Below are positions 2,376-29,462 of a stretch of DNA of 62,176 nucleotides, one piece after another; within the stretch, counting starts at the first letter, position 1, and each line of letters begins with the position of its first letter. Under the pieces are notes generated by a model. It was not told the DNA's origin and did not search any database. It worked only from the letters and a program-made list of their open reading frames with translations. Both the position numbers and the translations under genes were made by a program. The stretch lies in sequence record SRR2962707_5378; one strand, written 5' to 3'.

Positions 2376-3035
2376 TTGGAGTCGTTGCCCATCTGGGCTT
2401 TCCTTCTCGCCATTGCTTCAACGGCAGAGCTCTACCAGCCAACCGCGATCTATGGACTGCTGTCACGCGCGGTCATCGTGGTTCTAGGACCATCGCAGGA
2501 CAGGGTGGCTCGCGAGAAGACCCGCAACGTCGGAATCTGGCTGAACACGGACCAGGTCAGTTTTCGGGGATTTCCAAGCTACTTCCAGGTGCTTTCCAGC
2601 CAGCGGTTGGCTGATGTTGCCGACTTGGGGACCCTTGATGCGCACCGGATCTTACCCGAGTCGCATGCCGCTGTACCAAACCCCGCGGGGCTGGCAAAGA
2701 CTTTGTTCTTCGGTCGTGAGCTCATCAGGATGATGACGGAGGAAGGCTTCTTCGGCGTGAGGGACGCCGGGGTGCAGTTCATGTCAGACACGTTCTACTC
2801 GGCGCAGCTGACTCTCCCGGGCAATGCGCCTCCGGGACCCTATGTCGCTCAGACCTATGTGTTCAAAGACGGTGTCCTAGTGGCCCGATCCTCGGACGGC
2901 TTCGTGGTTCGCAAGGCTGGCTTTGAACGCTTTCTGGCTTTGTCTTCGGTGCAGCATCCATGGCTGTACGGCGCCGCTTGCGTGGTGCTTGCGCTTCTCA
3001 CGGGTTGGTTAGGTGGAATTGTATTCCGGCGTTGA
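2376..3035 (+). pseudogene. TIGR02186 family protein, N-terminally truncated/chimeric
   Basis: Aligns with 60785-61555 from VIVV.GP onward (GIWLNTDQV, LTLP.NAPPGPY, GWLGG..FRR); the first ~65 aa of the paralog and the TSUP partner gene are missing. Confidence 0.7.
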
Positions 3036-3223: not shown

Positions 3224-4012
3224 TCAGCAACGGTAGAACTTGCGCGCTGTTCTACTGAGCACCGCCTCTGCCTCGCCTGGGATGTCGTCAAAAAGCTCTC
3301 CCAGCCAGCCTCTGAACTCCATAGGGTTCGCACAAACTGGCCAGTTACTGCCGAACATTAGCTTGTCAGCGGACAGAAGAGCTCGCAGCCGCCCAAAATG
3401 GGCGGCAAGACGTGTCAGGAACTCCGTGTCCGACAAATTCCAGAGTGTAGGCGGGGACAGCTTGACGTGGACGTTTTCGAGTCCCCCCAGTTGGTCGAAC
3501 CGAGTGTCCCATATATCTCCCAGCGGGGGGTGGCCAGAATGGGTAAGTACAAAACTTACATCCGGCAAAGATCGACATAGGGAGGCAAATGCCTCCAGCC
3601 TACTTGGTTCGCGTACCCCAATCTCAACATGTCCGACACCTGCCATGTTCGACAATACGTCTTTGAGCTTCGAAGAAGCCAGGTCGTAGCAGTTTATGGG
3701 ACGCAGACGCAGACCACGCCATTTCTGATGTTTCGAAACGCTCTCCAACCTTTGGGCAAAACCTCGCTCTAGTGGTTGCAGATTGTTGACGAAACAGGCG
3801 ATCATCGGTTCACATGCGGCAAGTTTTGCCAATCGGTCGTCGTCGGCTGGACGGCAGCTGGTCTCCACCGCCACCACAGAGCACACACCAACTTCTCGGC
3901 TGTAATCAGTGGGGAGACAGACACGATAGGCTGGCGTCCCGGGTTTCGGCCAAGTGAGCCCATCTGGCCAATCTGGATCGTGAAAATGGGTGTGACTATC
4001 GAAACTGCGCAA
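3224..4012 (-). CDS. Amidohydrolase_2 family protein (sugar lactonase-like)
   Basis: FDSHTHF, GLRLRP, FVLTHSGHP, NVHVKLS, LMFGSNWPV. Confidence 0.85.
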   Translation of the reverse strand: MRSFDSHTHFHDPDWPDGLTWPKPGTPAYRVCLPTDYSREVGVCSVVAVETSCRPADDDRLAKLAACEPMIACFVNNLQPLERGFAQRLESVSKHQKWRGLRLRPINCYDLASSKLKDVLSNMAGVGHVEIGVREPSRLEAFASLCRSLPDVSFVLTHSGHPPLGDIWDTRFDQLGGLENVHVKLSPPTLWNLSDTEFLTRLAAHFGRLRALLSADKLMFGSNWPVCANPMEFRGWLGELFDDIPGEAEAVLSRTARKFYRC

Positions 4013-4015
4013 CCC

Positions 4016-5041
4016 CTATTCCCCGCGGAGGGGATGCAGGCAGGCGACGCGATGTAGAGACAGAGTTGCCGCCTCTACCGGTTGCAGCGTCGGAATCTCT
4101 TCAGCGCAGTCGGCCTGTGCTCGCCAGCAACGTGTCCTGAATCCGCACCCTGATGGCGGCGAAAGGGGGCTTGGAACTTCACCCTCCAGCAAGATGCGCT
4201 CGGCATCAGGAGCCTCGGGCATAGCTGACAATAGTGCCTTGGTGTAGGGATGCCTTGGGGAAGCAAAAACCGTGTCCGCCTCACCTATCTCAACCATCCT
4301 GCCCAGATACACGACGCCGATCCGGTGACACATGTGCCGGACGACTGAAAGGTCATGCGAAATAAACAGATAGCTCATGCCAAGCTTCACCTGAAGCTCG
4401 GTCAGCAGATTGAGCACCTGTGCCTGCACCGAGACGTCCAGTGCAGAAACGGCTTCATCAAGTATTAGTATTCTCGGAGACAATGCCAACGCGCGCGCAA
4501 TCGACACGCGCTGACGTTGCCCACCGGAAAACTGGTTGGGGTATCGATGCGCAAAGCTCGGGTCGAGACCAACCAGCTTCAGAAGCTCAGCCACCTTTGC
4601 AGACCGTGCTTCCGGAGCCACAACACCATGGTGGATCTCCCAAGGTTCACACAGTATCTGCTGAACTGTATGCCGCGGGTTCAGGCTTGCCCAAGGGTCC
4701 TGAAACACCATCTGCACGTTTCGCCTGACATTACTCAGTTCGGCCTCAGTGGCTGTTGCCACGTTGGTCGCTTCGAACATGATCCTGCCTGAGCTTGGGC
4801 GTTCTAGCCTCATGATGCAGCGGGCGAGGGTCGACTTGCCAGACCCAGACTCGCCAACGATGCCCAACGTGCGCCCTGCCTCCAATTCGAATGAGATGTT
4901 TTGAAGCGCTCTCACCGTTTGGGTATTTCGTGCATAGAACGGGCCCTCGGTGCTTGTGAACTCGCAGGACAAATCCTGCACCGACAAGACGGATGTAGGT
5001 CGCACGCCACCTACTGACGGCAACTGAGTGTGAGCGTTCAT
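4016..5041 (-). CDS. Opp/Dpp-type ABC ATPase (OppF-like)
   Basis: GESGSGKST, FSGGQRQR, ILDEAVSALD, HPYT..LL, C-terminal GC.FR.RC. Confidence 0.95.
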   Translation of the reverse strand: MNAHTQLPSVGGVRPTSVLSVQDLSCEFTSTEGPFYARNTQTVRALQNISFELEAGRTLGIVGESGSGKSTLARCIMRLERPSSGRIMFEATNVATATEAELSNVRRNVQMVFQDPWASLNPRHTVQQILCEPWEIHHGVVAPEARSAKVAELLKLVGLDPSFAHRYPNQFSGGQRQRVSIARALALSPRILILDEAVSALDVSVQAQVLNLLTELQVKLGMSYLFISHDLSVVRHMCHRIGVVYLGRMVEIGEADTVFASPRHPYTKALLSAMPEAPDAERILLEGEVPSPLSPPSGCGFRTRCWRAQADCAEEIPTLQPVEAATLSLHRVACLHPLRGE

Positions 5042-6054
5042 GGTTTTTCGCCGGCAAAGTGACAGAGACTGTAATGATTGCGCCCCAAATCAACTTTGGG
5101 AGGCGCGGCATCTGCACAAATGTCTTGCGCCTTGGTGCATCGGGGGCGGAATGGACAACCCTGAGGCAACCGCCGCAGATCGGGAGGCGATCCTGGAATC
5201 GGCACAAGAGAATGGCCCGGCCGGGCTGCACCGGGTGTCGATCGCATCAACCCAATCGTGTAAGGATGCGATGGGTGAGCAAACAGTGTCTCTTTGTCCG
5301 CCTCTTCAACTATGCGTCCAGCATACATGACCGCAATTCGGTCGGCCACGCGTTTGGCCACACCGAGATCATGCGTGATCAGCAGAAGACCCATACCACT
5401 CTCGTCTTGGAGACTCTGGATCAGATCAAGAACCTGCGCCTGAACAGTCACATCTAGCGCGGTAGTGGGCTCATCCGCGATCAACAGCCTCGGTCCCAGC
5501 GCGACGGCCATGGCGATCAGCGCGCGCTGCCGCATTCCTCCCGACAGTTGATGTGGATATGCGCTAAGGCGCTCGCGAGGAGATGGAATACCCACGCGCA
5601 TAAGGAGGTGTTGAGCCTCCGAAAGTGCTTGCCGCTTAGGCATGCCCAGATGAACACCGAGCAGTTCCGCCATTTGTGTCCCAATGGTGAACCGGGGGTT
5701 AAGCGATGTCAGCGCATCCTGAAAGATCAATGCCATTTCACGCCCACGAACACGTCGGTGTTCCGCTGCGCTCATTGCAGTAAGATCACGTCCCAAAAGT
5801 TGAAGTTTTTCCACTTCAACGGTACCGGGCGGCTGGGGAATCACACCCATGATCGCCTGCGCCATGACGCTCTTGCCGCTGCCGCTCTCACCGAGAACTA
5901 CGACGGATTTTCCAGCCGCCAAACGCATACTAACGCCGTTCACGGCAGAAACTTTACCCAGGTCCGAAGCGAAACTCACCCGGAGGTTTCGCATGTCCAG
6001 AATTGGCATTGCCGTGTCGGCCTCGAGTTTTTCGTCTGCAAGCAATACGGTCAT
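5038..6054 (-). CDS. Opp/Dpp-type ABC ATPase (OppD-like)
   Basis: GESGSGKS, LSGGMRQR, IADEPTTALD, GCPFRPRC. Confidence 0.95.
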   Translation of the reverse strand: MTVLLADEKLEADTAMPILDMRNLRVSFASDLGKVSAVNGVSMRLAAGKSVVVLGESGSGKSVMAQAIMGVIPQPPGTVEVEKLQLLGRDLTAMSAAEHRRVRGREMALIFQDALTSLNPRFTIGTQMAELLGVHLGMPKRQALSEAQHLLMRVGIPSPRERLSAYPHQLSGGMRQRALIAMAVALGPRLLIADEPTTALDVTVQAQVLDLIQSLQDESGMGLLLITHDLGVAKRVADRIAVMYAGRIVEEADKETLFAHPSHPYTIGLMRSTPGAARPGHSLVPIPGSPPDLRRLPQGCPFRPRCTKAQDICADAAPPKVDLGRNHYSLCHFAGEKP

Positions 6055-7019
6055 GACTTAGCGCGCTCCTTCTTTGAAACAAGCCAACGCCAGCGTTGCA
6101 CGGGGTCCGTCACCGCTCGCAGCCAAGCTGCCAGCAAATTGGCGCTAAGAGCCGTCAGAAAAATCGCTAGTCCGGGGAAAGCGACCAGCCACCAGGCCAA
6201 AGCAATATAGTCGCGCCCACCGGCGACCATTAATCCCCAAGAGCTCTCCGGGGGCTGGATACCCAGCCCTAGAAAGCTCAGTGTCGCCTCAGCCAGAATG
6301 AGCTTGGCGACTTCCATCGTTCCGAGCACAATCAAGGGCGAAAGCATATTCGGAAGTATGTGAGACCTGATGATACGGCCCCGCGAAGCGCCCAACGATC
6401 GTGAGGCTTCGACAAAGGGCGCTTCGCGGAGCGACATTGCCAGCGAACGCGCAACACGCGCATAGACCGGCCAGCGGACAACCGCGAAGATCAAAATGAT
6501 GTTCGCAAGACTAGGTCCAAGAGCATAGAGGACCAGCAGCGCAAGCATTAGGAACGGGAAACCTAGCTGCAGATCCGCCAGTCGCATCACGACGTCGTCG
6601 GTTCGTCCGCGGGCGGTTCCTGCCAAGGCCCCTAGAAAAACCCCGATCACGCCGGATACAGCGACCCCACAGAATGCGACGATCAGCGAGACTCTCGCGG
6701 AGTGAATAATGCGGCTAAAGATGTCGCGTCCAAGTGTGTCTGTGCCCATCAGGTGAATGAAGCCTTCTTGAGGGACAGTGAGGGGAGGACTGTTTCGAGT
6801 GCGTAGAGACTGAGCAGTCGGATCGTAGGGGGCCAACAATTCAGGGAAGAGCGCCACAGCGACAAGCAATAGCAGGTATACCAGGGCCACGAGGGTAACC
6901 GGGTCGCGCAGCAACGCGCGAAGGAACACCGCAATTCCCGGGCGATCCGGTAACTGGCTGGTCGTTTCAAATTGAGGCGGTAGAGCCGCGCCTGAACTGC
7001 TGGTTTCCGTCACAGACAT
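6051..7019 (-). CDS. Opp/Dpp-type ABC permease (OppC-like)
   Basis: GTDTLGRDIFSR, EAA loop FVEASRSLGA, LSFLGLG; start placed at MSVTET after upstream stop. Confidence 0.92.
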   Translation of the reverse strand: MSVTETSSSGAALPPQFETTSQLPDRPGIAVFLRALLRDPVTLVALVYLLLLVAVALFPELLAPYDPTAQSLRTRNSPPLTVPQEGFIHLMGTDTLGRDIFSRIIHSARVSLIVAFCGVAVSGVIGVFLGALAGTARGRTDDVVMRLADLQLGFPFLMLALLVLYALGPSLANIILIFAVVRWPVYARVARSLAMSLREAPFVEASRSLGASRGRIIRSHILPNMLSPLIVLGTMEVAKLILAEATLSFLGLGIQPPESSWGLMVAGGRDYIALAWWLVAFPGLAIFLTALSANLLAAWLRAVTDPVQRWRWLVSKKERAKS

Positions 7020-7023
7020 TGCC

Positions 7024-7935
7024 TCACTTGTAGCGAAGTTTGGGGTCGAGCCATGCATAGGCAAGGTCGATCGCAAGGTTGACAAAAATAATGACTGTCA
7101 CGATCACGCACACCACCGCCTCGATAAGAAACAGGTCACGATGATAGATTGCCTGTACCAACAGTCGTCCTATTCCAGGCCATGCGAACACTGTCTCGAT
7201 AGCGATTGCGCCCCCCATCAGCATGGCCATTTCGTCGCCGGCAATTGTCAGGATCGGAATGGATGCGTTCTTGAGAGCATGTCCAAACACACGCTGCTCT
7301 GGAATGCCGTTGGCTCTGGCGACATGAATGTAGGGCTTGGAGTATTCGTCCAACATTGCACTGCGCGTAATTTGCGCCATGCGGCCTATAGAGCGATACG
7401 CCAGAGCAAGAGTAGGCAGGATCAGGTGCTCAATGCCGCCATATCCTGCGGTCGGCAGCCAACCGAGCGTGACTGAGAAGAAGATGATCAGCATCAAGCC
7501 GAGCCAGAAGTCCACAATGGAAATTCCGCCCAAAGTGAAAACGGTAACAGCGCGATCAATCCAGGTTCCCGCATGCAATGCGGCTAACGTCCCTAGAAGC
7601 AACGCCGTAGGCACTGAGACTATCAGCACGCTGATCGTGAGATAGAAAGTAGGCACTATGCGATCTAGCGCAATCTCCAAGGCCGGTGACTTTTGCCATA
7701 GCGAGTCACCGAAACCGGATCCGACGCGTACAACGAAGTCAACAAATTGTCCCGACAACGGTTTGTCGAAGCCAAATTTGGCCCGCATATCGGCAATCAT
7801 CTCCTCCGACGCTTCCGCGGGCAGCATCATTTCGACGGGATCGCCTATGACATGACCAACCAGAAACACCAGCACAAGAACAGCCATCGCAACAAAGATG
7901 GACTGAAACATCCGGCGCAAAACGTATTGTTGCAT
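7024..7935 (-). CDS. Opp/Dpp-type ABC permease (OppB-like)
   Basis: YVLRR, GDPV, YI.VARANG, ETVFAWPGIG, DLAYAWLDP. Confidence 0.92.
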   Translation of the reverse strand: MQQYVLRRMFQSIFVAMAVLVLVFLVGHVIGDPVEMMLPAEASEEMIADMRAKFGFDKPLSGQFVDFVVRVGSGFGDSLWQKSPALEIALDRIVPTFYLTISVLIVSVPTALLLGTLAALHAGTWIDRAVTVFTLGGISIVDFWLGLMLIIFFSVTLGWLPTAGYGGIEHLILPTLALAYRSIGRMAQITRSAMLDEYSKPYIHVARANGIPEQRVFGHALKNASIPILTIAGDEMAMLMGGAIAIETVFAWPGIGRLLVQAIYHRDLFLIEAVVCVIVTVIIFVNLAIDLAYAWLDPKLRYK

Positions 7936-8017
7936 GACGGGCTCCTCGGACACGCATCGCAGGCTGCCCGGCGCCCGAATACAGGGGGACACCGAGCATA
8001 TCGCGTAGATTGGAGAA

Positions 8018-9583
8018 CTACTTTAGGTTGATGTCCGTCAGGCGAACGCCAGCGTGAACTGGAGGCAGGAAACTGACGCGATCTGACACGCCGTGAAACC
8101 GTACTTCGTGGTGCATGGGAATGAACCACAAATCTTCATAGGTCAGCCGGCCTATTTCAGCCAGCGCGTCTTGGCGCGCGTCACCCACTAGACCCGAGGC
8201 TACTTCTAGTCGCTCATCAATCTCGGGATTGCAGGCTACAGACAGGCGACCTTCACAAGTGTAGAACGCCGCCAGGGTCGACGCAAAGTCGTACGGATCG
8301 TTGGTGTGCTTGTGCAAAGCGATCAGTCCACGACTTGGGTCAATCGGCCGAGGTGCATTGATAAAGACATCCTGCCACGCTGGACCGCGCTCCAGAACTT
8401 CGGCTTTGACATTGGAAATACCGACTTGCTTGAGTGATTCAAGCATGACTTCCATCACCTCAGCATTACCTATGAACCCTCCCGACATTGTCGCCATCCA
8501 CAAGGGCGTTTCGTCCACGGCGACGCCATCCGCTTTTGCCTCTGCTACCAGTGAACGCGCCCGATCCATGTCGTATTCTAGAGGCGGCAATTCATCGTTG
8601 TACCCAGTTGCCGATGGCCCCACGATCATCGTGGCCGGAGCTGCACCGCCCAGCAAGACTTCCCCCATTGTCGCCCTGTCGGCAGCCAATGAGATGGCTT
8701 CACGTATGCGATGGTCCGCAAGCACAGGATTGGCGCTGTCGAGCCGGAAATAAGTTGAGGTTGTGTCAGGGCTCTGGATGCAGTTCTCACCCAGCTGCGT
8801 TTTGCAGAGCTCCCCCGGCAGTCGCTCCGCAAAATCGACTTCGCCCGCTTGAAGCGCAGCTATGCGGGACGAGGCCTCAGGCCTGAAGAGGAACGTTGCC
8901 TTGTCGTACTCGATCGCGCCATAGGTATCGGCGGCCCCAATACCCCACCATTCCGCATTATCTTCCAGGGTCAACGAAGTGCCACGTGACCATTCCGCGA
9001 CCTTGTACGGCCCAGTCCCGATGGCGATCTGCCCCCACTCTTCCGGAGATGCGAGGATTTGTTCAGAAGAAGACACATAAGTCTGCCACATTCGGGTCAG
9101 CAACAGCGGGTCCGGACTTGCGGTGCGCACTTCGAGCACCAAGTCGCCCTTGGCCTCGAAGGTCATCTCCGGTCCTCCCAGCGCACGAATCTGGAATGCG
9201 TTCTCAACATCCCAGGCATAGGCAAGTGCATGTGCGGCACCTTGAGCATCCAGCCTGGAGCCATCGTGAAAGACTACGCCGTCTCGCAGGTTGAAACGCC
9301 AAGTTTGCTGGTCCACTTGCTCCCAGGATGTCGCTAATTCCGGTACAAACTCATTTGTCGCAGGGTCGCGACCGACCAGACTTTCATACACATTGCCCAT
9401 TACAGTGCGACTATTGGCATTGTATGCGTTTGCAACATCTAGCGACGGGGGCTCTACCAGAGCGGCGATTGCTATCGCTTCCTCGGCTAAGGCAAACGTG
9501 GGTGACAGCGCGAGCACAACGCCGACTGCTGTGAAGAGCCTCGAGTTCGTTCGGCGCCGCTGTGTGTCCAGAAAACGGATCAT
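8018..9583 (-). CDS. ABC substrate-binding protein, family 5
   Basis: Signal peptide, VYESLV, PELATSW, LRDGVVFHDG, IGTGPYK. Confidence 0.92.
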   Translation of the reverse strand: MIRFLDTQRRRTNSRLFTAVGVVLALSPTFALAEEAIAIAALVEPPSLDVANAYNANSRTVMGNVYESLVGRDPATNEFVPELATSWEQVDQQTWRFNLRDGVVFHDGSRLDAQGAAHALAYAWDVENAFQIRALGGPEMTFEAKGDLVLEVRTASPDPLLLTRMWQTYVSSSEQILASPEEWGQIAIGTGPYKVAEWSRGTSLTLEDNAEWWGIGAADTYGAIEYDKATFLFRPEASSRIAALQAGEVDFAERLPGELCKTQLGENCIQSPDTTSTYFRLDSANPVLADHRIREAISLAADRATMGEVLLGGAAPATMIVGPSATGYNDELPPLEYDMDRARSLVAEAKADGVAVDETPLWMATMSGGFIGNAEVMEVMLESLKQVGISNVKAEVLERGPAWQDVFINAPRPIDPSRGLIALHKHTNDPYDFASTLAAFYTCEGRLSVACNPEIDERLEVASGLVGDARQDALAEIGRLTYEDLWFIPMHHEVRFHGVSDRVSFLPPVHAGVRLTDINLK

Positions 9584-9688
9584 TCTTTCCTCCCTTGATC
9601 TGGATCAGGCGACAAGCTGCATGACCCATTCGAAGGGAGCTTATTCAGCGCCAACAGCCTCCGAAACATCGCCGAAAATTCGTTCCGC

Positions 9689-11410
9689 CTAGTGGAACTC
9701 TTGGCGACTATGGCCAAGGACAAGACCAAATTCCCTTTCTGCGAATCCTCTAATCCCGACTGGCACTCTCAGCACACTCCCTGATAGTGGAGCGTGCGCC
9801 AACACCTCCGGCGGAACGTGCAACCGACACGTAGTCACGAAGAGGTCTTGAAGGCCCACGCCTCCAAAGCAAAGAGCGGTCGGCAATGGCACAGGCAGGT
9901 GAACCACTGCGATCTCTCGGCCTTCAGCGCTAAAGCGTTTGAGCTGCCATCCGCCGTAGATTGCGGTCCACAAGCACCCTTCAGCGTCCACGGCAACGCC
10001 ATTCGGCGTGCCTTCACCAGAATGAACGGCGAAACGGCGCGGCAGCATGGGGCGTGAATTGTCCGTATCAAGATCGAAGCACAATATCGCCTTTGAACCT
10101 GACTCCGTCAGAAAAAGTCTGTCACCATTCGGGCTCCAGCACAGTCCCTTTGCCCCTCTTTGCAATTCAAGCATTCGAGAAATTCGCCCGTCAGGCGAGA
10201 GGGCGTATACCCGCCCCTGGCCAATTCCCGCAGGGGAGAGAGGTCGCAAAGACCCAAACCAGAAGCGCCCATCCGGGCCGGTGCGGGCCACCGAAAAGCG
10301 GCGCTGCATTTCATGCGGTTCTGGATCGCTCAGCACACTATGCCGATTGGTGGCCAGATCAAGGACCCCCACGCCCTCCCTGGTTGCCACCAACACCCTT
10401 CCATCTTTGTACGGGGCAATTGCGCCTGGCAGGCAGTGAAGGGGTCTTCGGTCTACCGCGTTGGATTCGGGCGACCACAAGTTCAGCGCGCCCCCCAAGC
10501 TGTCAATCCAAACCAGACAACTTGACTTTGAGTCCCAATATGGACTTGATCCGACGCTGTCCGAATGACCCTGGGTCAAGGGTGCCACGCCATCCGACAG
10601 CGGACGTGCGCTTCCTCGACGTGCAACGGCATTTCGACGCGGACCAGGAAGGGGTGCTTGGGATATCCTTTTCGCAGCAAAGGCCAGCCGGCGCCCCACC
10701 TGATGGCGCTCGGCCTCCGAGATCTCGCCGTCCTCATAACTGACAACGAGGGCGCCTTGAGGACTACCATCTTCTCCAATTAGAGCCGCGGCCAACTCAA
10801 ACGCTACCCCGCCATCCTGCACGGAACCTCCATTTGCGGCTAGCTTCCGGACCGCGAAGCCCGTTGCTGTCGCAAAACCCAAATGCAACGAAAGATCCCG
10901 TTCAAGCACGGCTGTACTGGCGGTCAGCAAACCGATTGTTGAAGCGCATGCGGCACTATCCATTGCTGCGAGAATGGCGACTCCAGCCGCATTCTCGCTC
11001 AATGGCACAGGGGTGTGGTCGGTGACTTTGACGGCCATTCCGTAAGGCAACACCTGATCAGTCAGTCGCGCCGATCCGCCCTCCGTGCGCCAATACCAAA
11101 CCGTCGTCTCCAGTTCCTCCGCCAGTACCTGAAGTTCTTCGCGAAGGTCGTACCGGAGTCGGCTTTGAGGCGCCGCGTAGGCCATGAGATCAAGGAAGGC
11201 AGGGCCAAGAACATATCTTGACCCCAGGCCATGCAGAGCAACAAACCCAGACTGCTGGAGGGAGCTCAGGATGCGTAGCAAAGTCGGCTTTGGCAAGCCG
11301 GTTTCACGGTGAAGGCTCGCTAGTGACAGCCCCCCTCTGGCTGACCCAATTGCTAACAACACGCTCGTGCCCCTCGTCAGCAACCGCGCATCTTCCGATT
11401 TTTCGGTCAT
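9689..11410 (-). CDS. IclR regulator fused to C-terminal SMP-30/gluconolactonase beta-propeller (degenerate active site)
   Basis: IclR HTH (LTRG..LL, GLPKPTLLRIL..L..SGFV), IclR-like effector domain, then SGL motifs PYWD..WID, GPDGRFWFG, WSPNG, P.G.AVDAEG.LW, CFGG..L.DLFVTT. Confidence 0.88.
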   Translation of the reverse strand: MTEKSEDARLLTRGTSVLLAIGSARGGLSLASLHRETGLPKPTLLRILSSLQQSGFVALHGLGSRYVLGPAFLDLMAYAAPQSRLRYDLREELQVLAEELETTVWYWRTEGGSARLTDQVLPYGMAVKVTDHTPVPLSENAAGVAILAAMDSAACASTIGLLTASTAVLERDLSLHLGFATATGFAVRKLAANGGSVQDGGVAFELAAALIGEDGSPQGALVVSYEDGEISEAERHQVGRRLAFAAKRISQAPLPGPRRNAVARRGSARPLSDGVAPLTQGHSDSVGSSPYWDSKSSCLVWIDSLGGALNLWSPESNAVDRRPLHCLPGAIAPYKDGRVLVATREGVGVLDLATNRHSVLSDPEPHEMQRRFSVARTGPDGRFWFGSLRPLSPAGIGQGRVYALSPDGRISRMLELQRGAKGLCWSPNGDRLFLTESGSKAILCFDLDTDNSRPMLPRRFAVHSGEGTPNGVAVDAEGCLWTAIYGGWQLKRFSAEGREIAVVHLPVPLPTALCFGGVGLQDLFVTTCRLHVPPEVLAHAPLSGSVLRVPVGIRGFAEREFGLVLGHSRQEFH

Positions 11411-11735
11411 ATTGGAGCCAACCCCTCAGGTACCCATATTGCCACCCATGCAGGCGAGCGATAGTTGGATCAGATAAACACCCCGCCCAGTGCATGCGGC
11501 TATCTAGTCAGGGTGCAGTTAGCTATCACTGGAACTTCAAACTAGGTTTGCGACTGTCCGACGAAAAGCAAAGTGAGTGCTTGAGCCCTCCGCGGAATCG
11601 CCTCTGCAAAAGGATGACAAACTCATATGTGAAACGCTCGTCTGCCTCACAAAACCTCAAACCATGTGGGTTGGCAGACCGCAGGTAAATGCCTTGCGGC
11701 GACATCTGAAACTCTCGGCACGCAAGGACACAAGA

Positions 11736-12824
11736 TCATTTCGTAACGCGCTCAAGGGCCAGAGTTGGCAATTGCATCGACCAATGGTCTTTGTTGGGTA
11801 TGCCGGTGCTATTGCGAACCAACAGTTCGGTTGGCGTGAGAACGGGCACGATCTCTTCCCCTTCTATTGCAGCAACAATCATTTCAGCGGCTGCTGCACC
11901 ACGCCTTCTCCACGATGTGCGCACCGTAGTCAGCGAAATCAACGGATGTCCTGTGACTTGAGCTCCGTCATAGCCTGTAATCGAAACATCATCGGGCACC
12001 GAGAGCCCCATTTCGTGGGCCATGCCCAGAGCCGCCAACGCCAAATCGTCATTTCCGCATACGATCGCACTTGGGCGGTCGCTGCGACTCATTGTGGTGC
12101 TAAATGCCTCCCGAGCCTCTTGCTCGTCGGCTCCACACAGATGCAAGTGTCTCCGGGAAAGTGACAATCCGCGCTCCTTCAGTCGCGTCGAGACGGCTTC
12201 GACGCGAAACTTCCCGTTCTTGACTGCGCGTTTGTCGCCGATCATTCCGATGGATCGGTGCCCTAGTTCTAAGAGATGGTCGACTACCGAATTCAATGCT
12301 TCTCGCTCATTCTGTCCGACCCAGTGCGGGAAGAGCTCATGGTTCACGTTTGACAGCATCACATGAGGCATGTTCGCGGCTTGAAGTAGCTCACGAGCGA
12401 CTTCGGGCCGGTCAAGGTGAGTTAGCAAAATGGCATCAACACCACGCTGAATGAGACCGGAAAGAGCTTTGTGCTCCGCCTCCGAGTCATAGTTCGTGGC
12501 CGACACCAACAATGAGATGTTCCGCGCGGACAGCTCTGCCTCAAAGTACATTAGCTCGTGCCTGACCATTATGTGATCGAGCGAGGGGATCAGAACACCG
12601 ACGGTGCCCCATTTGCTGCCTGCCAGTGCTCGCGCCGCGGGGTTCATTTGATAGCCCAAGGCATTGACCGCACTATTGATGCGCTTCAGAGTTCGCGGAT
12701 TGACCACATTTGGTGAGTTCAAAGCTCTAGAAACTGTTACGGGCGCAACACCAGCCCGACGCGCGACATCAGCGAGTGTGGGCCGTTTTGGACCGGCTGA
12801 ACGGGGGGCGACAGGTTTTTTCAT
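11736..12824 (-). CDS. LacI family transcriptional regulator
   Basis: PTLADVARRAGVAPVTVSRALN, ..NPAARAL, VPDDVSITGYD. Confidence 0.95.
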   Translation of the reverse strand: MKKPVAPRSAGPKRPTLADVARRAGVAPVTVSRALNSPNVVNPRTLKRINSAVNALGYQMNPAARALAGSKWGTVGVLIPSLDHIMVRHELMYFEAELSARNISLLVSATNYDSEAEHKALSGLIQRGVDAILLTHLDRPEVARELLQAANMPHVMLSNVNHELFPHWVGQNEREALNSVVDHLLELGHRSIGMIGDKRAVKNGKFRVEAVSTRLKERGLSLSRRHLHLCGADEQEAREAFSTTMSRSDRPSAIVCGNDDLALAALGMAHEMGLSVPDDVSITGYDGAQVTGHPLISLTTVRTSWRRRGAAAAEMIVAAIEGEEIVPVLTPTELLVRNSTGIPNKDHWSMQLPTLALERVTK

Positions 12825-12914
12825 GTGTTGTTTATAGTTCCGCGTGGGTTTGCGGCAGTTCCTGCCGCAGTATTCCGACCTTGTGATCGTTTGGCGGACC
12901 TAGAGGTCATGACT

Positions 12915-14000
12915 TTATGCCGCCTCGCTCTGCAACCGCTGCGCGGCCCGACCATCTGCCTCGAACAAATGAGCTCGCGTCGGATCGAATCCAAAACGCA
13001 TTTCATCGCCGAGTCGAATCAAGTCCGCATCTCCGAGCTTGGCCGTGAACGCCCCCACCGTCGTTTCCAAATGAACCAGGGAATATTCTCCTAGCTGCTC
13101 AACAAGGACCACCTCTCCTGCGATCGGGCCGTTCTCCGTATGCTTCAGATGTTCAGGACGTACACCTAGCGTCACCTCGTCTTGAGCGACCATTTCGAGC
13201 CGGACCGAACCGCCGCCCCAATCCGCAGAAAGCGAGACATCGGTGCCATGTTGCCTGGGAGTCGCCACGGCAGGAAAAAAGTTCATTCTCGGAGAGCCGA
13301 TGAACTGAGCAACAAATTTATTCGCTGGACAATGGTACAGTTCGAGCGGGGTGCCAACCTGCTCAACCAAGCCGTCGCGCAAAACCACGATACGATCGGC
13401 CAAAGTCATCGCCTCAACTTGATCGTGAGTGACAAATATCATCGTAGCTTTGAGTTTCTGATGCAGTTTAGCAATCTCGACGCGCGTTTGTACTCTCAAT
13501 TCGGCGTCCAGATTTGAAAGCGGCTCGTCGAACAGGAATACTTCTGGTTCGCGCACAATCGCACGGCCAATAGCAACACGTTGCCTTTGCCCACCAGAAA
13601 GCGCTGTGGGCAATCTGTCGAGATACTCGCCAATGCGCAACGTGTCGGCAGCGTGACGTACCTTCCTTTCGATCACATCTTTGGCAGTCTTAGCCAAGCG
13701 CATGGCAAACGAAATATTCTCAGATACCTTCATATGGGGATATAGAGCGTAGGACTGGAAAACCATGGCCACGCCGCGCTTGGCGGGGGCAACGTCGTTC
13801 ATAATCCGACCGCCGATCTGCAATTCTCCGCTGCTGATTTCTTCAAGACCGGCAATGGCTCGAAGCAGGGTCGATTTCCCACATCCGGAGGGACCGACAA
13901 AAACGACAAACTCGCCTGAATGGATACTCAAGTCCACGCCGTGGATGACTTCAACATTGCCATAAGACTTGCGGATATTCTTCAGCGTAACGGTACTCAT
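12915..14000 (-). CDS. Sugar ABC ATPase (MalK/UgpC-like)
   Basis: GPSGCGKST, VFQSYALYPHM, LSGGQRQR, FDEPLSNLD, TOBE tail. Confidence 0.95.
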   Translation of the reverse strand: MSTVTLKNIRKSYGNVEVIHGVDLSIHSGEFVVFVGPSGCGKSTLLRAIAGLEEISSGELQIGGRIMNDVAPAKRGVAMVFQSYALYPHMKVSENISFAMRLAKTAKDVIERKVRHAADTLRIGEYLDRLPTALSGGQRQRVAIGRAIVREPEVFLFDEPLSNLDAELRVQTRVEIAKLHQKLKATMIFVTHDQVEAMTLADRIVVLRDGLVEQVGTPLELYHCPANKFVAQFIGSPRMNFFPAVATPRQHGTDVSLSADWGGGSVRLEMVAQDEVTLGVRPEHLKHTENGPIAGEVVLVEQLGEYSLVHLETTVGAFTAKLGDADLIRLGDEMRFGFDPTRAHLFEADGRAAQRLQSEAA

Positions 14001-16075
14001 TTTCGTTTGCTCCATTTGTCGAGAAGAGCCGGGCTCAACATCATTGGCAAAAAAACTCCGCCCACCACGGGCCGCGCCCGAAAACCACGACCTTTTGCAG
14101 GCGCTCCGGTGTCGGCCTCATACCAGTCCGAAAGGGGCTCTCGGACGGGAGCGTCATCCAGCCATGCCGAAATACGTTCAATAATATGATCTTGATCTTC
14201 TTTGCGCCCGGTCAGGCACGCAGTCCAAACCAACCAATCCAGCTTGGTGTGCGAAGCGATGGAATGAAGGGGCACTCCGTAGGGCCTCATTTCTTCGCGA
14301 TACTTGGCCATTTCGGCGTCAAGGATGGACTGCTCGAACAGGTTGAGCTTCAAAAACCGATCCCAAATTAGGTTGTACTTCTGGCTCCAACTGTCTTGTT
14401 GGTCGAAACACATGCGATAATGGGATCCGTCTCGGTCCGTTTCGCGCCATTGCCGCGCACCCTGTTCCGCAGCCCTGCGGTATACCTCGCCATTAATACC
14501 CAAAGCCTCACCCAATTGCGCCGCGGCGCCGAGAGCGACGATGCCCTTGGCTGACAGATTCGCATTGTGCGCGATATGCCCGTCGAAATCGTCTGTGCAA
14601 AGCTGCTCATCCGGATCGAAGCCTTGGTCCATCAGATAGTCTGCCCATTGAGCAAGGGTAGGCCAGTGTTCCCGGAAGGCTTCCGGATCGTTCGTTACCT
14701 TGCTTAACGCAGCCACGAGAATCAGCATATTGCCACATTCCTCAAATGGCATTTGGTTTTCCTCGCCCGTTTCACCACCACCGTAAACTTGACCGTTTGC
14801 AAGCGGGTAGCGTCCTAGATCGTGCGGCGCGAACGAAAACTTCCAGGCCGGTGATGCGGCGTAGTCAAGCACGGGGCGAATTTGCGCCATCAACAATTCC
14901 GGGTTGAAAAGCAGGAAAAACGGAGCACTGGGATAGACTAGGTCGACAGTTCCCATGCAACCGTTCGAGGAGTTCTCCTTAGAGAAATGCAAGAGTTCGC
15001 CGCTACGATCCATCACTAGAGCATGTCCACCAAGACACTGGCGGAATGCCAATGTGCCCAGACGGGCAAAAGCGGGACCAGCAGCCCGATTCATGTCTGC
15101 CGTCAGGTCCTTGTCAAACGCCCGACACTGCGCTTCCACCTGGTCTTGCTCAGACCATGAGCGGTTAATCATCCCAATGGCGGTGGCATCTTGCTGTCGC
15201 CACAGCGGCGGGATACGTCGTCTCATATATTCGATTTGCGCAACATGGTCATAAGCGACAACCGCCGACCAGCGACCGTCAGACACCTTGCCGAAATTTT
15301 TGGAAACGGCCAAACCAAACACAGGGGGGCGATTTAGGTTTTGACTTTTCCCCAGCGCACGCCCTTCGCCACCTGAGGCAGAACATGGCAACGATAGCCC
15401 TCCACCTTCCGCCAGACCGTCGACGTTTGGCAGTCCGCCGTCTCGCGCGAATGCGAGGCGCATGCTTCGGGTATCTCCGGTCGCGGTGGTGCAACCTCCT
15501 TCTGGCTTTGGAGAAAGGTGCAGATATCCCCAGTCCGTGAAGCATTCATCACCCGAGCGCGCCAGCACCGATTGTTCGACAGTGCCACACCACAAGGAAG
15601 TGGTCTTTCCGTGCTGTTGCCGACCCCAAATAACCTCAGCCTCGGTCTTATCGGTCGAAATGGTCGCTGGAACATCAAGATAGACCTCAATCTGACGGGC
15701 AGTTCCATCGCGCGAACGGACCTCGAAGGATACATAGGTGACGGGTCGTGCAAGCAGTTGCGGCAGGTGGGGTAGCGCGGCCGTTGTGAAACTCAGGTTG
15801 AGTTCAACCCCTTCGGCCTCGAATGAGAAGGAGGTAATCGTTGGACCGATGTGACGGTGTATCTGCTTCATCGCGGGCAGGCTGGGAGACATGCGGGTGT
15901 TTCCGCCCATAAACCGCCACACCTTTTCGTCTATGCGAAGATGACCGGCCATTTCCACTGGACGACCTGTCCAGTGGGTTGGCCAGTTGTCTGTCAGAGC
16001 ATCGGCTGCCGACCAGATTGAGAAAAATGGGTCATGTACGATCAAAGGTGTTGCTGGTGCGCGCTCGCTGGTCAT
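13997..16075 (-). CDS. Glutaminase A (GtaA)-like DUF5127/DUF4965/DUF1793 protein, probable glycoside hydrolase
   Basis: PATPL..HDP.FSIWS, FSKENSSNGCMGTVD..YP, APHDLG.YP.ANG, MP.EECGNML, QLCTDDF.G, WSQKYNL.WD, F.ARPVVGG. Confidence 0.8.
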   Translation of the reverse strand: MTSERAPATPLIVHDPFFSIWSAADALTDNWPTHWTGRPVEMAGHLRIDEKVWRFMGGNTRMSPSLPAMKQIHRHIGPTITSFSFEAEGVELNLSFTTAALPHLPQLLARPVTYVSFEVRSRDGTARQIEVYLDVPATISTDKTEAEVIWGRQQHGKTTSLWCGTVEQSVLARSGDECFTDWGYLHLSPKPEGGCTTATGDTRSMRLAFARDGGLPNVDGLAEGGGLSLPCSASGGEGRALGKSQNLNRPPVFGLAVSKNFGKVSDGRWSAVVAYDHVAQIEYMRRRIPPLWRQQDATAIGMINRSWSEQDQVEAQCRAFDKDLTADMNRAAGPAFARLGTLAFRQCLGGHALVMDRSGELLHFSKENSSNGCMGTVDLVYPSAPFFLLFNPELLMAQIRPVLDYAASPAWKFSFAPHDLGRYPLANGQVYGGGETGEENQMPFEECGNMLILVAALSKVTNDPEAFREHWPTLAQWADYLMDQGFDPDEQLCTDDFDGHIAHNANLSAKGIVALGAAAQLGEALGINGEVYRRAAEQGARQWRETDRDGSHYRMCFDQQDSWSQKYNLIWDRFLKLNLFEQSILDAEMAKYREEMRPYGVPLHSIASHTKLDWLVWTACLTGRKEDQDHIIERISAWLDDAPVREPLSDWYEADTGAPAKGRGFRARPVVGGVFLPMMLSPALLDKWSKRK

Positions 16076-17874
16076 TCTGCAGCCTCATGTGGCTGTCGGG
16101 CCCTGTTCAGTTCCGACGAAAAAATGTCCCGATAGGTCTGGATCGGCAGCTTGGGCGTGCGATCATAGGTGAGAAGTCCGTTCTGTTCCTGCTCTACATC
16201 CGTCAATTGGGTGTAGCACCAGCCCCTAATGTGAGGTATCGCGTTGACAGCTCCGACCTGTCCGCGGATGCGCGCCTCCAGTTCCTTCAATGAACTAGGC
16301 GCATCTCCATAACCCCAAGCGGCACCGGCGTCCCGCGCGGCTTGCCCCGCGTCGAGGTTGGCGAACTCGCTATTGTCAGCCTCCAAGTCAAACGCGGCCC
16401 CTCCAAACTCGTCGAGAATATAGGGTTGGTAAGCGTACTGAGGTTCGCTTTGCGGAGCGTCTCGATATACATCTGGATATGGGCTCAACTGCTTCGCGAG
16501 TTTTTCTGGATCCTGTTGGTATGAATGTACGGTCCAAATGTCGGTGTCGCGGTGGACCCAGCCGGAGGCGTCGTTGACTGGTCGCGTCGGGTCCAGTTGC
16601 CGCGTTATTGCCGCCAAACGCTCGATCAGACGCAGATGCGACTCCTCAATCGGTTCGTGCCGTCCTTTGCCCCAACCGCTTTCATTGTGCGGAGTCCAAG
16701 CCACAATAGATGGATGGTTGCGACACTGGGAAACAATTGCTGGCCATTCTTCGAGCAAGTTTCCGTTGGCTTCTTCGTCTTCTGGCTCCGCACCCCAGGA
16801 CGCACTCTCGCCCCAGGTCATGTAACCCAATCGGTCCGCCCAATAGTGAAAGCGCGGCTCAAACACTTTCTGGTGAAGTCGGGCGCCGTTGAAACCCATC
16901 GACATCGACAGTTCAATATCGCGACGCAGCGCTTCATCATTTGGCGCCGTCCAGATGCCATCTGGATAAAAACCCTGATCGAGCACGAAGCGATGAAAGA
17001 TTTCTTCGCCGTTGAGCAAGATCCGGTCACCGTCGACTGTCACGTCGCGCAGCCCGCAATAGGCGTTGACGCGGTCCAGCACTTCCTCGCCGGCGCGAAT
17101 TTCATACTCGAGATCGTACAAGGTCGGAGAGCCGGGCGCCCAAGGCTGCGGCTCTGGAATGGTCAGAGTCAGCGGCACTCCACTCGACAAAGGAGCGGCG
17201 CGTTCGGCAACCCGTGTCCCGTTCAACGACGCCCGAACAAGCCAAGTCAGTCCGTGTGAGTTGTTTAGAGGTCGAGGCGTGAGCACCACAGTGCCGTTGG
17301 AATGCGTGACTACATCGACTGAGCGCAGATAGACTTCACCTGCATGTTCTAGCCAAACAGACTGCCAGATCCCAGTGGTCCGCGTGTAGTAGCACCCGTA
17401 GGAATGCGGCTTGCGGCTCTGTTTACCCGCCGGCTGTTTGCCACTCTGCAGCTTATCCTCGGCGTGTACAACGAGTCGGCACTTTCCCGAGGCCAGATGA
17501 CCAGTCAAATCAACACTGAAACCGGTTGAGCCGCCACGATGCAGACCGATCTGTTCGCCGTTTGCGAAAATTCGTGCCTGCCAATCGACTGCGCCGAAAT
17601 GCAGTATTACACGTCCACCGTCCCAACCATTAGGCCGGGTGATGTCTCGAGCGTACCAGATACTCTCCATGAAGCCGGTCTCACCAACTCCAGACAATGC
17701 ACTTTCAGGCGCAAATGGCACGGTGATGTGACGATCGAACCGGGACCCATCACGTCGGTCGGACACGGTACCGACTGCGTCAACTGCAAATTCCCATGTC
17801 CCATTCAGGCTATGCCAGTTCGGGCGGAAAAAGTGCGGGCGCGGCAGCTCAGCGCGCGGGAGCGAAAATGTCAT
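16072..17874 (-). CDS. Glycoside hydrolase family 2 (cytoplasmic)
   Basis: SLNGTWEF, LHFGAVDW, GKQ...YTRTTGIWQSVWLE, acid/base HNESGW, nucleophile LDEFGG, YTQLTDVEQE.NG. Confidence 0.92.
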   Translation of the reverse strand: MTFSLPRAELPRPHFFRPNWHSLNGTWEFAVDAVGTVSDRRDGSRFDRHITVPFAPESALSGVGETGFMESIWYARDITRPNGWDGGRVILHFGAVDWQARIFANGEQIGLHRGGSTGFSVDLTGHLASGKCRLVVHAEDKLQSGKQPAGKQSRKPHSYGCYYTRTTGIWQSVWLEHAGEVYLRSVDVVTHSNGTVVLTPRPLNNSHGLTWLVRASLNGTRVAERAAPLSSGVPLTLTIPEPQPWAPGSPTLYDLEYEIRAGEEVLDRVNAYCGLRDVTVDGDRILLNGEEIFHRFVLDQGFYPDGIWTAPNDEALRRDIELSMSMGFNGARLHQKVFEPRFHYWADRLGYMTWGESASWGAEPEDEEANGNLLEEWPAIVSQCRNHPSIVAWTPHNESGWGKGRHEPIEESHLRLIERLAAITRQLDPTRPVNDASGWVHRDTDIWTVHSYQQDPEKLAKQLSPYPDVYRDAPQSEPQYAYQPYILDEFGGAAFDLEADNSEFANLDAGQAARDAGAAWGYGDAPSSLKELEARIRGQVGAVNAIPHIRGWCYTQLTDVEQEQNGLLTYDRTPKLPIQTYRDIFSSELNRARQPHEAAE

Positions 17875-17909
17875 GAGATATCCCGGTTGTTTTGCGGTGA
17901 TGTAGCTGT

Positions 17910-17935
17910 CCCCGGCACGAGTAAACGTGCCGGGG
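17910..17935 (-). terminator. Stem-loop after SBP gene (mRNA stabiliser/partial terminator)
   Basis: CCCCGGCACG-AGTAAA-CGTGCCGGGG perfect 10-bp stem. Confidence 0.6.
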
Positions 17936-17949
17936 CCGGCGTTCGAAGG

Positions 17950-19242
17950 CTAGAGGAGGTCTTCTATGTCGATCTGCGCGTCCTCGAGGGCGTCTTCCTG
18001 CGACTTATCACCCATCCACGCGGCCAACAGTTCGCGCGCCAGTGCATCCTGGATGGCGCCGTAGCTAATGGATGGCGGAATGTCGCGAGAGTTGGCCGCC
18101 GTTTCAGCGTAGTCTGAACGGTGCGGCAGGCTGTTGTAATGATCGCTTTCCAGTACCGAAGTACGTACAGCCATGTGCCCAGTCTTGGCCCACGCGGCGT
18201 TGTTGTCGTTGATGTGCGCCAGAAGGTTTAGTGCGGCCTGGAATTTTTCCGGATCGCTCTCCTTCAGACTTGCGGGAATGGCCCACATGTGAGTGTCCGC
18301 CCAAACGGCGGGTTCATCATACAAGGTCGGGAAATTGGTAACATGGTAGTTGTTCAACGGGACGGAGGGATCCGCAGCCTGACTGTCATAGAAGTCAACC
18401 ACCCAAGTTCCGTTCACCAACACCGCAACTTCTCCGTCGAGAAATGCTTGCTGGGCAGCCGGATAGTCATTCTGTACGTCGACGTGACCATCGTCGATCA
18501 ACTTCTGAATGAGGCTGTGGGCCTCGACCATCTCAGCACTTTCCACAGTAGCATTGTCGCCCTCATAGAGGGTTGCGCCTTGCTGCATGACAAGTGCCAT
18601 GGCGGTCCGCATACCGAAAACACCACCTTGGAACTGCTGAGCTAGATAGTCCTTGCCTGTGGCCTGCTTAACCGCTTCGGCCTGCGCGATGAGTTCTTCT
18701 GGACTGATCGGGACGATTGGATTTCCTTCCTCGTCGACCAAACCGGCTTCCGTCATTATGTCAACGTTTACATGCCAAAGCAGGGCATGAAAATCCATAG
18801 GAACAGCGTAGATATTGCCGTCAAACGTCACGGCATCAAGGGCTGCCGGAGCCCAGTCAGAAACATCGATACCAGCTGCCGCGAGTTCCTCTTCAGTGAG
18901 CGGAGCGATGGCGCCAAGTGACGCGAATTCCATCACCCGGTGACGGTGCATGACATGTACGTCGGGGGGGTTGCCACCAGCGTAAGTCGCCTTGATCTGA
19001 TCGTAGTAGCTGTTCCACTCAGTAGGGAGCGTTTCAACGGTAACCCCGTTGTCTGCAGCAGAAAACGAGCGGATGATTGACTCAATAATGCAGGGCTCGC
19101 CCACCTCGGCTGCCGGATCAAGGCCGGCATCTTCGCATGCACCAAAGAACCGACCAAGCACCAGTTCAGTTTGCGCGAACGCCTCGACTGTTGGCACTGC
19201 TATTGCCGCAGCGGTGGCAACCACTATTAGCACTTGTTTCAT
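17950..19242 (-). CDS. Carbohydrate ABC substrate-binding protein
   Basis: Signal peptide, GNPPDV, DGNIYAVP, NGTW; within CUT1 operon. Confidence 0.9.
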   Translation of the reverse strand: MKQVLIVVATAAAIAVPTVEAFAQTELVLGRFFGACEDAGLDPAAEVGEPCIIESIIRSFSAADNGVTVETLPTEWNSYYDQIKATYAGGNPPDVHVMHRHRVMEFASLGAIAPLTEEELAAAGIDVSDWAPAALDAVTFDGNIYAVPMDFHALLWHVNVDIMTEAGLVDEEGNPIVPISPEELIAQAEAVKQATGKDYLAQQFQGGVFGMRTAMALVMQQGATLYEGDNATVESAEMVEAHSLIQKLIDDGHVDVQNDYPAAQQAFLDGEVAVLVNGTWVVDFYDSQAADPSVPLNNYHVTNFPTLYDEPAVWADTHMWAIPASLKESDPEKFQAALNLLAHINDNNAAWAKTGHMAVRTSVLESDHYNSLPHRSDYAETAANSRDIPPSISYGAIQDALARELLAAWMGDKSQEDALEDAQIDIEDLL

Positions 19243-19267
19243 TTCTATCTCCTCCTGTTTAAGACGG

Positions 19268-20104: not shown

Positions 20105-20108
20105 GGCT

Positions 20109-29460: not shown

Positions 29461-29462
29461 GC

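Follow-up and report, generated by a model that had tools for sequence, protein, structure and literature searches.

Regulators of the IclR family are common biosensor parts and are thought to sense via one conserved effector domain. Sensing by an enzyme-derived domain is established for other regulators, namely MocR/GabR (aminotransferase fold), NrtR (Nudix fold), the ROK repressors and Bacillus subtilis PurR (PRT fold), in which a DNA-binding domain is joined to a copy of a pathway enzyme whose turnover has been lost or reduced. Here we describe an IclR-SGL fusion protein (P0001), in which an IclR-type helix-turn-helix (HTH) domain precedes a six-bladed SMP-30/gluconolactonase (SGL) propeller. 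It is encoded at 9689..11410, on the minus strand, of a 62,176-nucleotide (nt) stretch of DNA from the record SRR2962707_5378; this whole stretch is called the window below. We hold with moderate confidence that the protein is a one-component IclR-family regulator and that its propeller acts as a metal-free pseudo-enzyme sensor of a lactone or aldonate. The principle would be that of the regulators listed above, which are unrelated proteins built from other DNA-binding families and enzyme folds, and among which we know of no replacement of a metal by lysine. It is the pairing of IclR with a lactonase propeller that is new; sensing via a disabled copy of a pathway enzyme is an established principle.

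On the enzyme side, the closest described systems are SMP30/regucalcin, the Caulobacter xylonolactonase XylC and the luciferin-regenerating enzyme, which have the same fold as the propeller (Z of 41.3, 40.4 and 38.7, respectively) at 22-29% identity. As set out in the available text of PMC3551927, the metal of SMP30 is held by Glu18, Asn154 and Asp204, with Asn103 being critical to catalysis; the sugar hydroxyls are bound by Arg101, Asn103 and Glu121, Asp204 is the proposed base, and the gulonate carboxylate is proposed to lie on the metal. For XylC, the accessible part of PMC8820113 describes a planar metal triad of Glu18, Asn146 and Asp196, hydrogen bonds from Arg99, Asn101 and Glu120 to the sugar, and a Trp211 that packs on the sugar ring. 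According to the same part, Drp35 loses almost all activity when the corresponding ligands are mutated to alanine.

On the regulator side, canonical IclR regulators (TtgV 2xrn, 2g7u and 3r4k) resemble the target in the IclR winged HTH and the effector-type domain that follows it (residues 2-231). Unlike them, the target adds a propeller of 290 residues and has an effector-type domain too diverged for Pfam, and we propose that sensing has moved to the propeller. PobR of Streptomyces coelicolor (5w1e; PMC5814911) is an IclR regulator that is likewise enlarged, and its HTH aligns with target residues 8-104 (E 4.4e-8); according to the available portion of that paper, however, its extra part is a second IclR repeat and not an enzyme-derived propeller. 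The initial annotation of this DNA knew of no characterised regulator of the IclR-SGL type. In agreement with this, a search of open-access articles found no paper on an IclR-SMP-30/gluconolactonase fusion. In what is available of the preprint 10.1101/072470, the sole mention is of an 'iclR-like regulator' that has xylose phenotypes and is unrelated.

The fusion protein and its propeller site

The protein is built as follows.

9689..11410, minus strand: open reading frame (ORF) of the IclR-SGL fusion protein P0001, 573 amino acids; ATG at 11410, TAG at 9689-9691
11240..11380, minus strand: HTH_IclR winged-helix DNA-binding domain, residues 11-57 (Pfam and orthologue alignment)
10661..11203, minus strand: diverged IclR effector-type (IclR_C-like) domain, residues about 70-250 (alignments to IclR structures and to fusion relatives)
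10562..10660, minus strand: linker, residues 251-283 (1 of 33 columns invariant; predicted local distance difference test score, pLDDT, 68-88)
9725..10561, minus strand: six-bladed SGL propeller, residues 284-562 (Pfam and structure match)

The span is readable on the minus strand only, the plus-strand frame being packed with stops. A single ORF of this length had been reported here with no mention of its strand, and the frame is indeed single and intact. The HTH and propeller assignments made at that time also hold, on Pfam scores and on superposition of the propeller: HTH_IclR (PF09339) matches residues 11-57 with 40.0 bits (cut-off 22) and SGL (PF08450) residues 287-528 with 185.3 bits (cut-off 26.3). 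Recognition-helix residues T37, L39, K41, T43, L44, R46, I47 and L48 are unchanged across 8 orthologues. For the effector-like domain the result is divided: alignments to IclR regulators speak for it, but Pfam IclR_C (PF01614) has no match in the target at E <= 0.01. The NCBIfam model BhcR aligns with residues 4-252 (model positions 18-264 of 267), PDB 2g7u with residues 2-194 (E 6.9e-8) and PDB 3r4k with residues 16-231 (E 4.1e-5). The region also matches, column for column, fusion relatives that themselves reach 84-139 bits on IclR_C.

Structure prediction, proposed earlier as a check, gave a confident six-bladed SGL fold. The AlphaFold2 (AF2) model, computed from a 40-sequence alignment, has a pLDDT of 89.3 and a predicted template-modelling score (pTM) of 0.84; its low-confidence parts are the loop 195-199, the linker at 251-270, the lid loop at 391-400 (pLDDT 66) and the C-terminal tail. 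In a wide VIA structure search that covered the propeller (residues 266-561), it superposed on mouse SMP30 (4gn7_A) with a root-mean-square deviation of 2.0 Å over 291 residues and on XylC with 1.7 Å over 284 residues, at the Z values given above. The Foldseek TM scores for these two enzymes, normalised to the matched (Foldseek target) structure, are 0.90-0.93. NHL and YWTD propellers were also among the structural matches.

The site was mapped through a HMMER alignment to human and mouse regucalcin, which is gap-free and of high posterior probability at the site columns and gives these equivalences.

10547..10549, minus strand: Ser288 codon (TCA), on the metal ligand Glu18 (regucalcin alignment)
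10292..10294, minus strand: Ser373 codon (TCG), on the catalytic, substrate-binding Asn103 (RFND changed to RFSV)
10148..10150, minus strand: Lys421 codon (AAG), on the metal ligand Asn154 (Lys in 8 of 8 orthologues and in the whole Lys clade described below)
10001..10003, minus strand: Asn470 codon (AAT), on the metal ligand and proposed base Asp204 (regucalcin alignment)
10298..10300, minus strand: Arg371 codon, kept equivalent of the sugar-hydroxyl-binding Arg101 (SMP30) or Arg99 (XylC)
9956..9958, minus strand: Tyr485 codon, kept pocket aromatic equivalent to Tyr219 (SMP30) or Trp211 (XylC)

Translation and a codon check confirm the motifs read at the outset, i.e., GSSP (287-290), RFSV (371-374), AKGLCWSP (420-427) and PNG (469-471). 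In comparison with SMP30-type hydrolases, the target carries Ser, Lys and Asn at the triad positions and Ser in place of Asn103, has Pro390 in the column of the lid-loop Glu121, and is fused to a DNA-binding protein. Neither the SMP30-type metal triad Glu18/Asn154/Asp204 nor Asn103 is present. Substitution of all metal and catalytic positions had been claimed before, and all four are changed in the regucalcin alignment, which has no gap at the site columns. Judged from this alignment, none of the residues that serve in metal binding or catalysis has survived, while the sugar-binding arginine and the pocket aromatic are kept.

The replacements are shared by close relatives. A word-indexed search of 5.8 billion proteins found seven of them, all with HTH_IclR and SGL, at 44-58% identity to the target by BLASTP (44-59% in the MAFFT alignment A1), and all seven carry the same site replacements in A1. 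Over the 8 sequences, invariant columns amount to 102/279 in the propeller, 20/69 in the HTH, 33/181 in the IclR_C-like domain and 1/33 in the linker. Nine of the 11 pocket-equivalent positions are invariant in the orthologues, including S373, K421, N470, Y485 and P390, and at the other two the changes are conservative, with Ser or Thr at 288 (Thr in one orthologue) and Arg or Lys at 371. Since the replacements are fixed and the propeller is the best-conserved part of the protein, the site has been rebuilt and then kept under purifying selection, not left to decay.

These data also bear on the idea that the fusion arose by a frameshift or an assembly join, or is a nascent pseudogene with a functionless propeller. 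The missing catalytic residues fit this idea, and nothing else does. The frame is intact, the same architecture is found in 7/7 close relatives and in 36/40 members of a wider alignment (A2, see below) from many sources, the propeller is better conserved than any other region, and its fold is predicted confidently. We find such an origin hardly credible; conservation across relatives refutes a decaying or artefactual fusion.

Site states across the fusion family

Searched exhaustively with HMMER, 1.84 billion cluster representatives yielded 9323 matches at E <= 0.001, and about 35 full-length fusions are among the best 150 of them. Alignment A2 has 40 members, 36 with HTH_IclR, 28 with IclR_C and 4 in which SGL follows other N-terminal parts. 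Site states, defined as the residues equivalent to Glu18/Asn103/Asn154/Asp204, were scored on a 156-row alignment, with 8 short uncertain fragments set aside. This scoring, suggested in the initial annotation, gave a mixed answer: the target's group is degenerate, but many members of the family are canonical. Among the best-ranked matches, 7/36 fusions are canonical (E/N/N/D) and 29/36 have a changed metal triad, the latter figure being biased because matches are ranked by likeness to a degenerate query; the triad is changed in 6/112 non-fused propellers. A naive Fisher test of fusion against site loss returns p 1.8e-18, which ignores kinship and is not readable as a probability. The fusions form nearly one clade, and an independent-pairs test (2 starred pairs) was without power. 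Arg371 is kept in 33/36 fusions.

Genome samples, which do not depend on likeness to the query, gave a different picture of how common the changed states are. Full-length fusions occur in 3/401 and 7/401 genomes of two alphaproteobacterial samples. Seven of these ten are canonical, one is E/S/N/A, one is G/Q/K/N (L002) and one is S/S/K/N (L001). Because seven of ten are canonical, fusion alone does not mean a dead enzyme; catalytic residues of the trigger-enzyme type are retained in these seven and not in the target. A separate scan of genome contigs gave L001 and L002 as its only fusions, and a close orthologue is present in the two samples only in G002, the genome of L001. A metagenome scan returned 8 loci at 28-32% identity that cover query residues 240 onward, none of which matches the IclR part. 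The target's clade is a rare, derived state.

The intact-site fusions (L048, L059-L063 and P0013-P0019) have the same three-part build as the target, belong to the same fusion clade and lie in sugar-acid clusters. Unlike the target, they keep Glu/Asn/Asn/Asp and reach 266-312 bits for Pfam SGL and 73-149 bits for IclR_C, and a search for genes of the SGL, Amidohydro_2 and dienelactone hydrolase (DLH) types detected no further lactonase-family gene in their vicinity. They may be both enzyme and regulator. A fusion at L049 (8956-10692, plus strand) has an E/S/N/A site, in which Asp204 is changed to Ala and Asn103 to Ser, and represents a second, independent kind of site loss. Its apparent operon consists of a sugar ATP-binding cassette (ABC) system, a GFO/IDH/MocA dehydrogenase, an aldehyde dehydrogenase, the fusion and a pyridoxal-phosphate-dependent dehydratase. 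SGL is also found with other partners: L050 (8461-10092, minus) and L051 (8641-10518, minus) encode SGL fusions of 543 and 625 amino acids with about 265-345 N-terminal residues that have no Pfam match, and Epimerase, TauE or PhyH is the partner in further SGL fusions (among P0060, P0062, P0126 and P0138).

An IQ-TREE tree of 62 propellers was computed with a mixture model, a short 'quick' search and support values from the Shimodaira-Hasegawa-like approximate likelihood ratio test (SH-aLRT). All Lys421-bearing proteins fall into one clade of 18 rows with a support of 99, the Lys clade. Its first branch (7 rows, support 99) is mostly E/N/K/N and includes a second fusion from the window. The second branch is nested from P0012 (E/N/K/N) through L002 (G/Q/K/N) and P0009 (A/A/K/N) to an 8-row S/S/K/N group, with supports of 95, 98, 98 and 100. 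By this nesting of states, Asn154 changed to Lys and Asp204 to Asn first and together, with Glu18 and Asn103 being lost later. The partner of Lys421 at position 470 is Asn in 15 proteins, Gly in 1, Ala in 1 and Asp in 0/17, which fits the early suggestion that the lysine stands in for the charge of the metal. In the first step, one Glu and one Lys would give the net charge of the former Glu, Asp and M2+. In the target's clade the site would be net positive (Lys421 and Arg371), a charge that would match a carboxylate or polarised carbonyl.

Profile scores drop along the same series, from canonical fusions through the Lys clade to the target's clade. For IclR_C, canonical-site fusions reach 73-149 bits, and Lys-clade members outside the target's group score 38-89 bits or have no match; in the target's clade P0006 alone matches, with 22.5 bits, below the cut-off. 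On SGL, the canonical-site fusions reach 231-312 bits and the members of the target's clade 171-198 bits. This series has to be considered together with the alternative that the IclR_C-like domain still binds the effector and that the role of the dead propeller lies in oligomerisation or in the docking of proteins, e.g., of a transporter or an enzyme partner. Such a role would be consistent with the confidently predicted IclR_C-like fold and its alignment with relatives that score strongly on IclR_C; beta-propellers are, moreover, common protein-interaction modules, and NHL and YWTD propellers are among the structural matches. Nevertheless, the IclR_C-like part is less conserved than the propeller (18% vs. 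37% invariant columns) and has fallen below Pfam detection, unlike its counterpart in canonical-site fusions, and the conservation of the propeller extends to the former substrate pocket (9/11 positions invariant), with the sugar-binding arginine and the aromatic kept. We regard a docking role as unlikely.

The second IclR-SGL fusion of the window, a paralogue absent from the initial annotation, is encoded at 34483-36153 on the plus strand (556 amino acids; HTH_IclR E 7.5e-13, SGL E 3.7e-62). Its site is E/N/K/N, read from VGENP, NRFNSA, LAKNAAWSP and GVPNG. At 31.5% identity to the target, this paralogue falls into the other branch of the Lys clade, where the tree places it with P0011 (56% identity). 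Its locus is referred to as window B and that of the target regulator as window A, both being parts of the same window. Divergent from the second fusion (25908-34520, minus) are genes for an MR_MLE dehydratase, an SDR protein, an SBP5 ABC system whose two ATPases are fused, and a DHDPS-type protein, a layout that closely resembles L002. Directly after it come two tandem stand-alone SGL genes (35988-37031 and 37028-37897, both plus), of which the first is canonical (E/N/N/D) and the second is K/N/N/D, with Lys at the Glu18 position (TGKAP). With a support of 100, the two group as a long-branch pair, placed outside the fusion clade.

The downstream operon and nearby lactonase-family genes

The genes and spacers around the target regulator that matter for its possible function are the following.

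8018..9583, minus strand: SBP_bac_5 solute-binding protein (SBP), 72% identical to its L001 counterpart
7024-7992 and 6051-7085, minus strand: two Opp-type permeases of the same ABC system
5038-6054 and 4016-5041, minus strand: two ATPases of the same ABC system
3224..4012, minus strand: Amidohydro_2 protein, COG3618 lactonase branch
9584..9688, minus strand: 105-nt spacer from the regulator stop to the SBP start, candidate operon promoter/operator
11411..11735, minus strand: 325-nt stretch upstream of the regulator, candidate promoter/autoregulation site

The link between the regulator and the adjoining Opp-type ABC and Amidohydro_2 genes, pointed out in the initial annotation, is supported by synteny at L001. 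In this orthologous locus the genes stand in the same order, with a PfkB kinase after them, and the upstream genes differ; the regulators are 47% identical, and the six downstream genes 72, 82, 78, 68, 67 and 54%. Equal longest contigs (285192, 12694 and 38051) for the Amidohydro_2 relatives P0160, P0163 and P0166 and the regulator relatives P0008, P0005 and P0007 suggest that regulator and Amidohydro_2 are linked in three further genomes as well. The solved protein most closely related to the SBP is AccA, which binds agrocinopine, a sugar phosphodiester (E 1e-26), and ranks above peptide binders; this is a weak hint that the cargo of the operon is not a peptide. Between the regulator and SBP genes of L001, at 10025-10039, there is a perfect inverted repeat, GTGAAA-cga-TTTCAC, with a half-site spacing that we take to be typical of IclR boxes. 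The pattern GTGAAA-N3-TTTCAC was rejected as an operator of the target, having no counterpart in the spacer of the window.

The only NCBIfam match of the Amidohydro_2 protein is L-fucono-1,5-lactonase, at E 8.3e-11 and far under the model cut-off; the L002 Amidohydro_2 matches the same model at E 2.5e-39. A PDB search with the single sequence found nothing, a three-sequence profile retrieved 4dlf (E 1.3e-22), and an AF2 model of moderate quality (pLDDT 67.4) resembles 4dlf and 4do7 best, followed by 2-pyrone-4,6-dicarboxylate hydrolases. In view of the NCBIfam, profile and model matches, the protein is a member of the lactonase branch (COG3618) within the amidohydrolase superfamily. The 'amidohydrolase' of the first reading is thus present and of a lactonase type, but its sequence FGSNWPV has Asn in place of the beta-8 Asp of 4dlf (FGSDWPV; WGSDWP in 2ffi). 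This Asn (S-N-W/Y-P) is invariant in 15/15 aligned Amidohydro_2 relatives and is natural in PDB 6uvz too. LigI has a catalytic base, Asp248, at which the same change was engineered (D248N mutant, PDB 4dia). Members of the subfamily are encoded in the window at 3224-4012 and 47133-48044 (both minus), at L001 15591-16526 and at L002 8067-9071.

Twelve fusion loci were searched by six-frame tblastn with SGL, Amidohydro_2 and DLH queries. Extra lactonase-family genes were found at 4/4 Lys-clade loci: an Amidohydro_2 in window A and at L001, an Amidohydro_2, a DLH and a separate SGL at L002, and the two adjacent SGL genes in window B. Being orthologous, window A and L001 amount to a single event. 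The eight other fusion loci (L048, L049 and L058-L063) gave 0/8 with an extra SGL, Amidohydro_2 or DLH gene within about 8-9 kb, other lactonase families not being covered by the search. The simplest reading is that canonical-site fusions supply the pathway lactonase themselves and that Lys-clade fusions no longer do so; the contrast of 4/4 with 0/8 loci thus favours a sensor over an enzyme in the Lys clade. Sugar-acid genes stand beside the fusions in L002, L048, L049, L059-L063 and window B. They include MR_MLE dehydratases, whose best NCBIfam match is galactonate or arabinonate dehydratase, as well as DHDPS-type proteins, SDR or GFO/IDH/MocA dehydrogenases, aldehyde dehydrogenase, aldose epimerase, sugar ABC or TRAP transporters and sulfatases.

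The same neighbourhoods can be used to judge whether the target is still an enzyme, in which Ser288/Ser289, Lys421, Asn470 and Arg371 would carry out metal-independent hydrolysis or isomerisation, for instance through a Ser-Lys pair, making the protein a bifunctional enzyme-regulator. The pocket is under strong purifying selection, and two of its former ligand positions carry Ser and Lys. The family probably includes an enzyme-plus-regulator state, given that the canonical relatives stand in pathway clusters with no other lactonase-family gene (0/8), and the operon Amidohydro_2 may not supply the activity, since it lacks the beta-8 Asp of 4dlf. However, none of the residues to which the structural papers assign metal binding or catalysis is left, and extra lactonase-family genes are present at each of the Lys-clade loci. 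One orthologue has Thr at position 288, and the nearest outgroups P0009 and L002, in which Lys421 and Asn470 are already present, have Ala or Gly there, so a Ser nucleophile is not clade-wide. We consider retained catalysis quite improbable.

Directly upstream of the target are a LacI regulator, a sugar ABC system, a GH2 glycosidase and a glutaminase-A-like six-hairpin protein, and farther upstream a GntR/FCD regulator with a sulfatase (all within 11736-21266, minus, and 22633-24785, plus). The window is packed with carbohydrate and sugar-acid clusters, with four MR_MLE and three DHDPS genes, a TctA/TctC transporter and SBD_N/NBD_C kinase-like genes. Two Alph_Pro_TM membrane proteins are encoded at 2376-3035 (plus), after a DUF3422 gene (1044-2363), and at 60785-61555 (plus), after a TauE/SafE gene (59823-60788).

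Proposed mechanism and implications

In the sensor that we propose, the ammonium group of Lys421 would sit in the former place of the metal and, together with Arg371 and Tyr485, would hold a sugar lactone or aldonate by its carbonyl or carboxylate end, with no turnover. The flexible lid loop (389-398) would probably close over the bound ligand. Occupancy may then be relayed to the HTH dimer or tetramer by way of the linker and the IclR_C-like domain, and DNA binding would change at the promoter of the co-directional operon for the SBP5 ABC importer and Amidohydro_2, resulting in either repression or activation.

Several points weigh against this reading. Only the alignment places the side chain of Lys421 at the metal site, and the IclR_C-like domain, being confidently folded in the model, could still be a real effector site. 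The excess of changed triads among the fusions carries the ranking bias mentioned above, and the intact sites of 7/10 genome-sample fusions mean that fusion alone implies no sensing. Synteny with the operon was read directly at one orthologous locus, L001. A promoter consensus scan of 9400-11900 gave 0 promoter-like sites, along with 2 terminator-like sites, both within the ORF (shuffles average 2.9), and the 105-nt and 325-nt regions hold no inverted repeat of at least 10 nt. The sole 10-mer common to the window and L001, CGAATGGGTC, was tried as an operator and not used, about 0.5 such matches being expected by chance, as estimated from the lengths of the regions compared. Finally, as the beta-8 Asp of the operon Amidohydro_2 is replaced by Asn, a live lactonase beside a dead one at the target locus is not established, and we do not claim a working lactonase for the operon.

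A broader scenario can be put forward tentatively. Canonical fusions would serve an oxidative sugar pathway both as its lactonase and as its regulator. Within the Lys clade, lysine would have replaced the metal, with its charge balanced against the retained Glu; later, Glu and Asn103 would have been lost, leaving a net-positive, metal-free pocket that holds a sugar acid or lactone without turnover, and the enzyme job would have moved to separate genes. The target would be the end point of this series and the founding example of a propeller-type IclR effector domain.

Close relatives of the target carry public names such as 'SMP-30/gluconolactonase/LRE family protein' or 'sugar lactone lactonase'. 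For the target's clade this enzyme annotation is probably wrong, which should serve as a warning about lactonase names on pseudo-enzyme regulators. If the proposed role is correct, an enzyme-derived propeller sensor would widen the known ligand-sensing modes of the IclR family and would offer ready-made receptors for sugar lactones and aldonates, intermediates of the oxidative pentose and hexose pathways in biomass conversion. In general, the family is a rare graded series from an intact to a remodelled site, including a lysine-for-metal swap, in which the question of how an enzyme becomes a receptor can be tested with few proteins.

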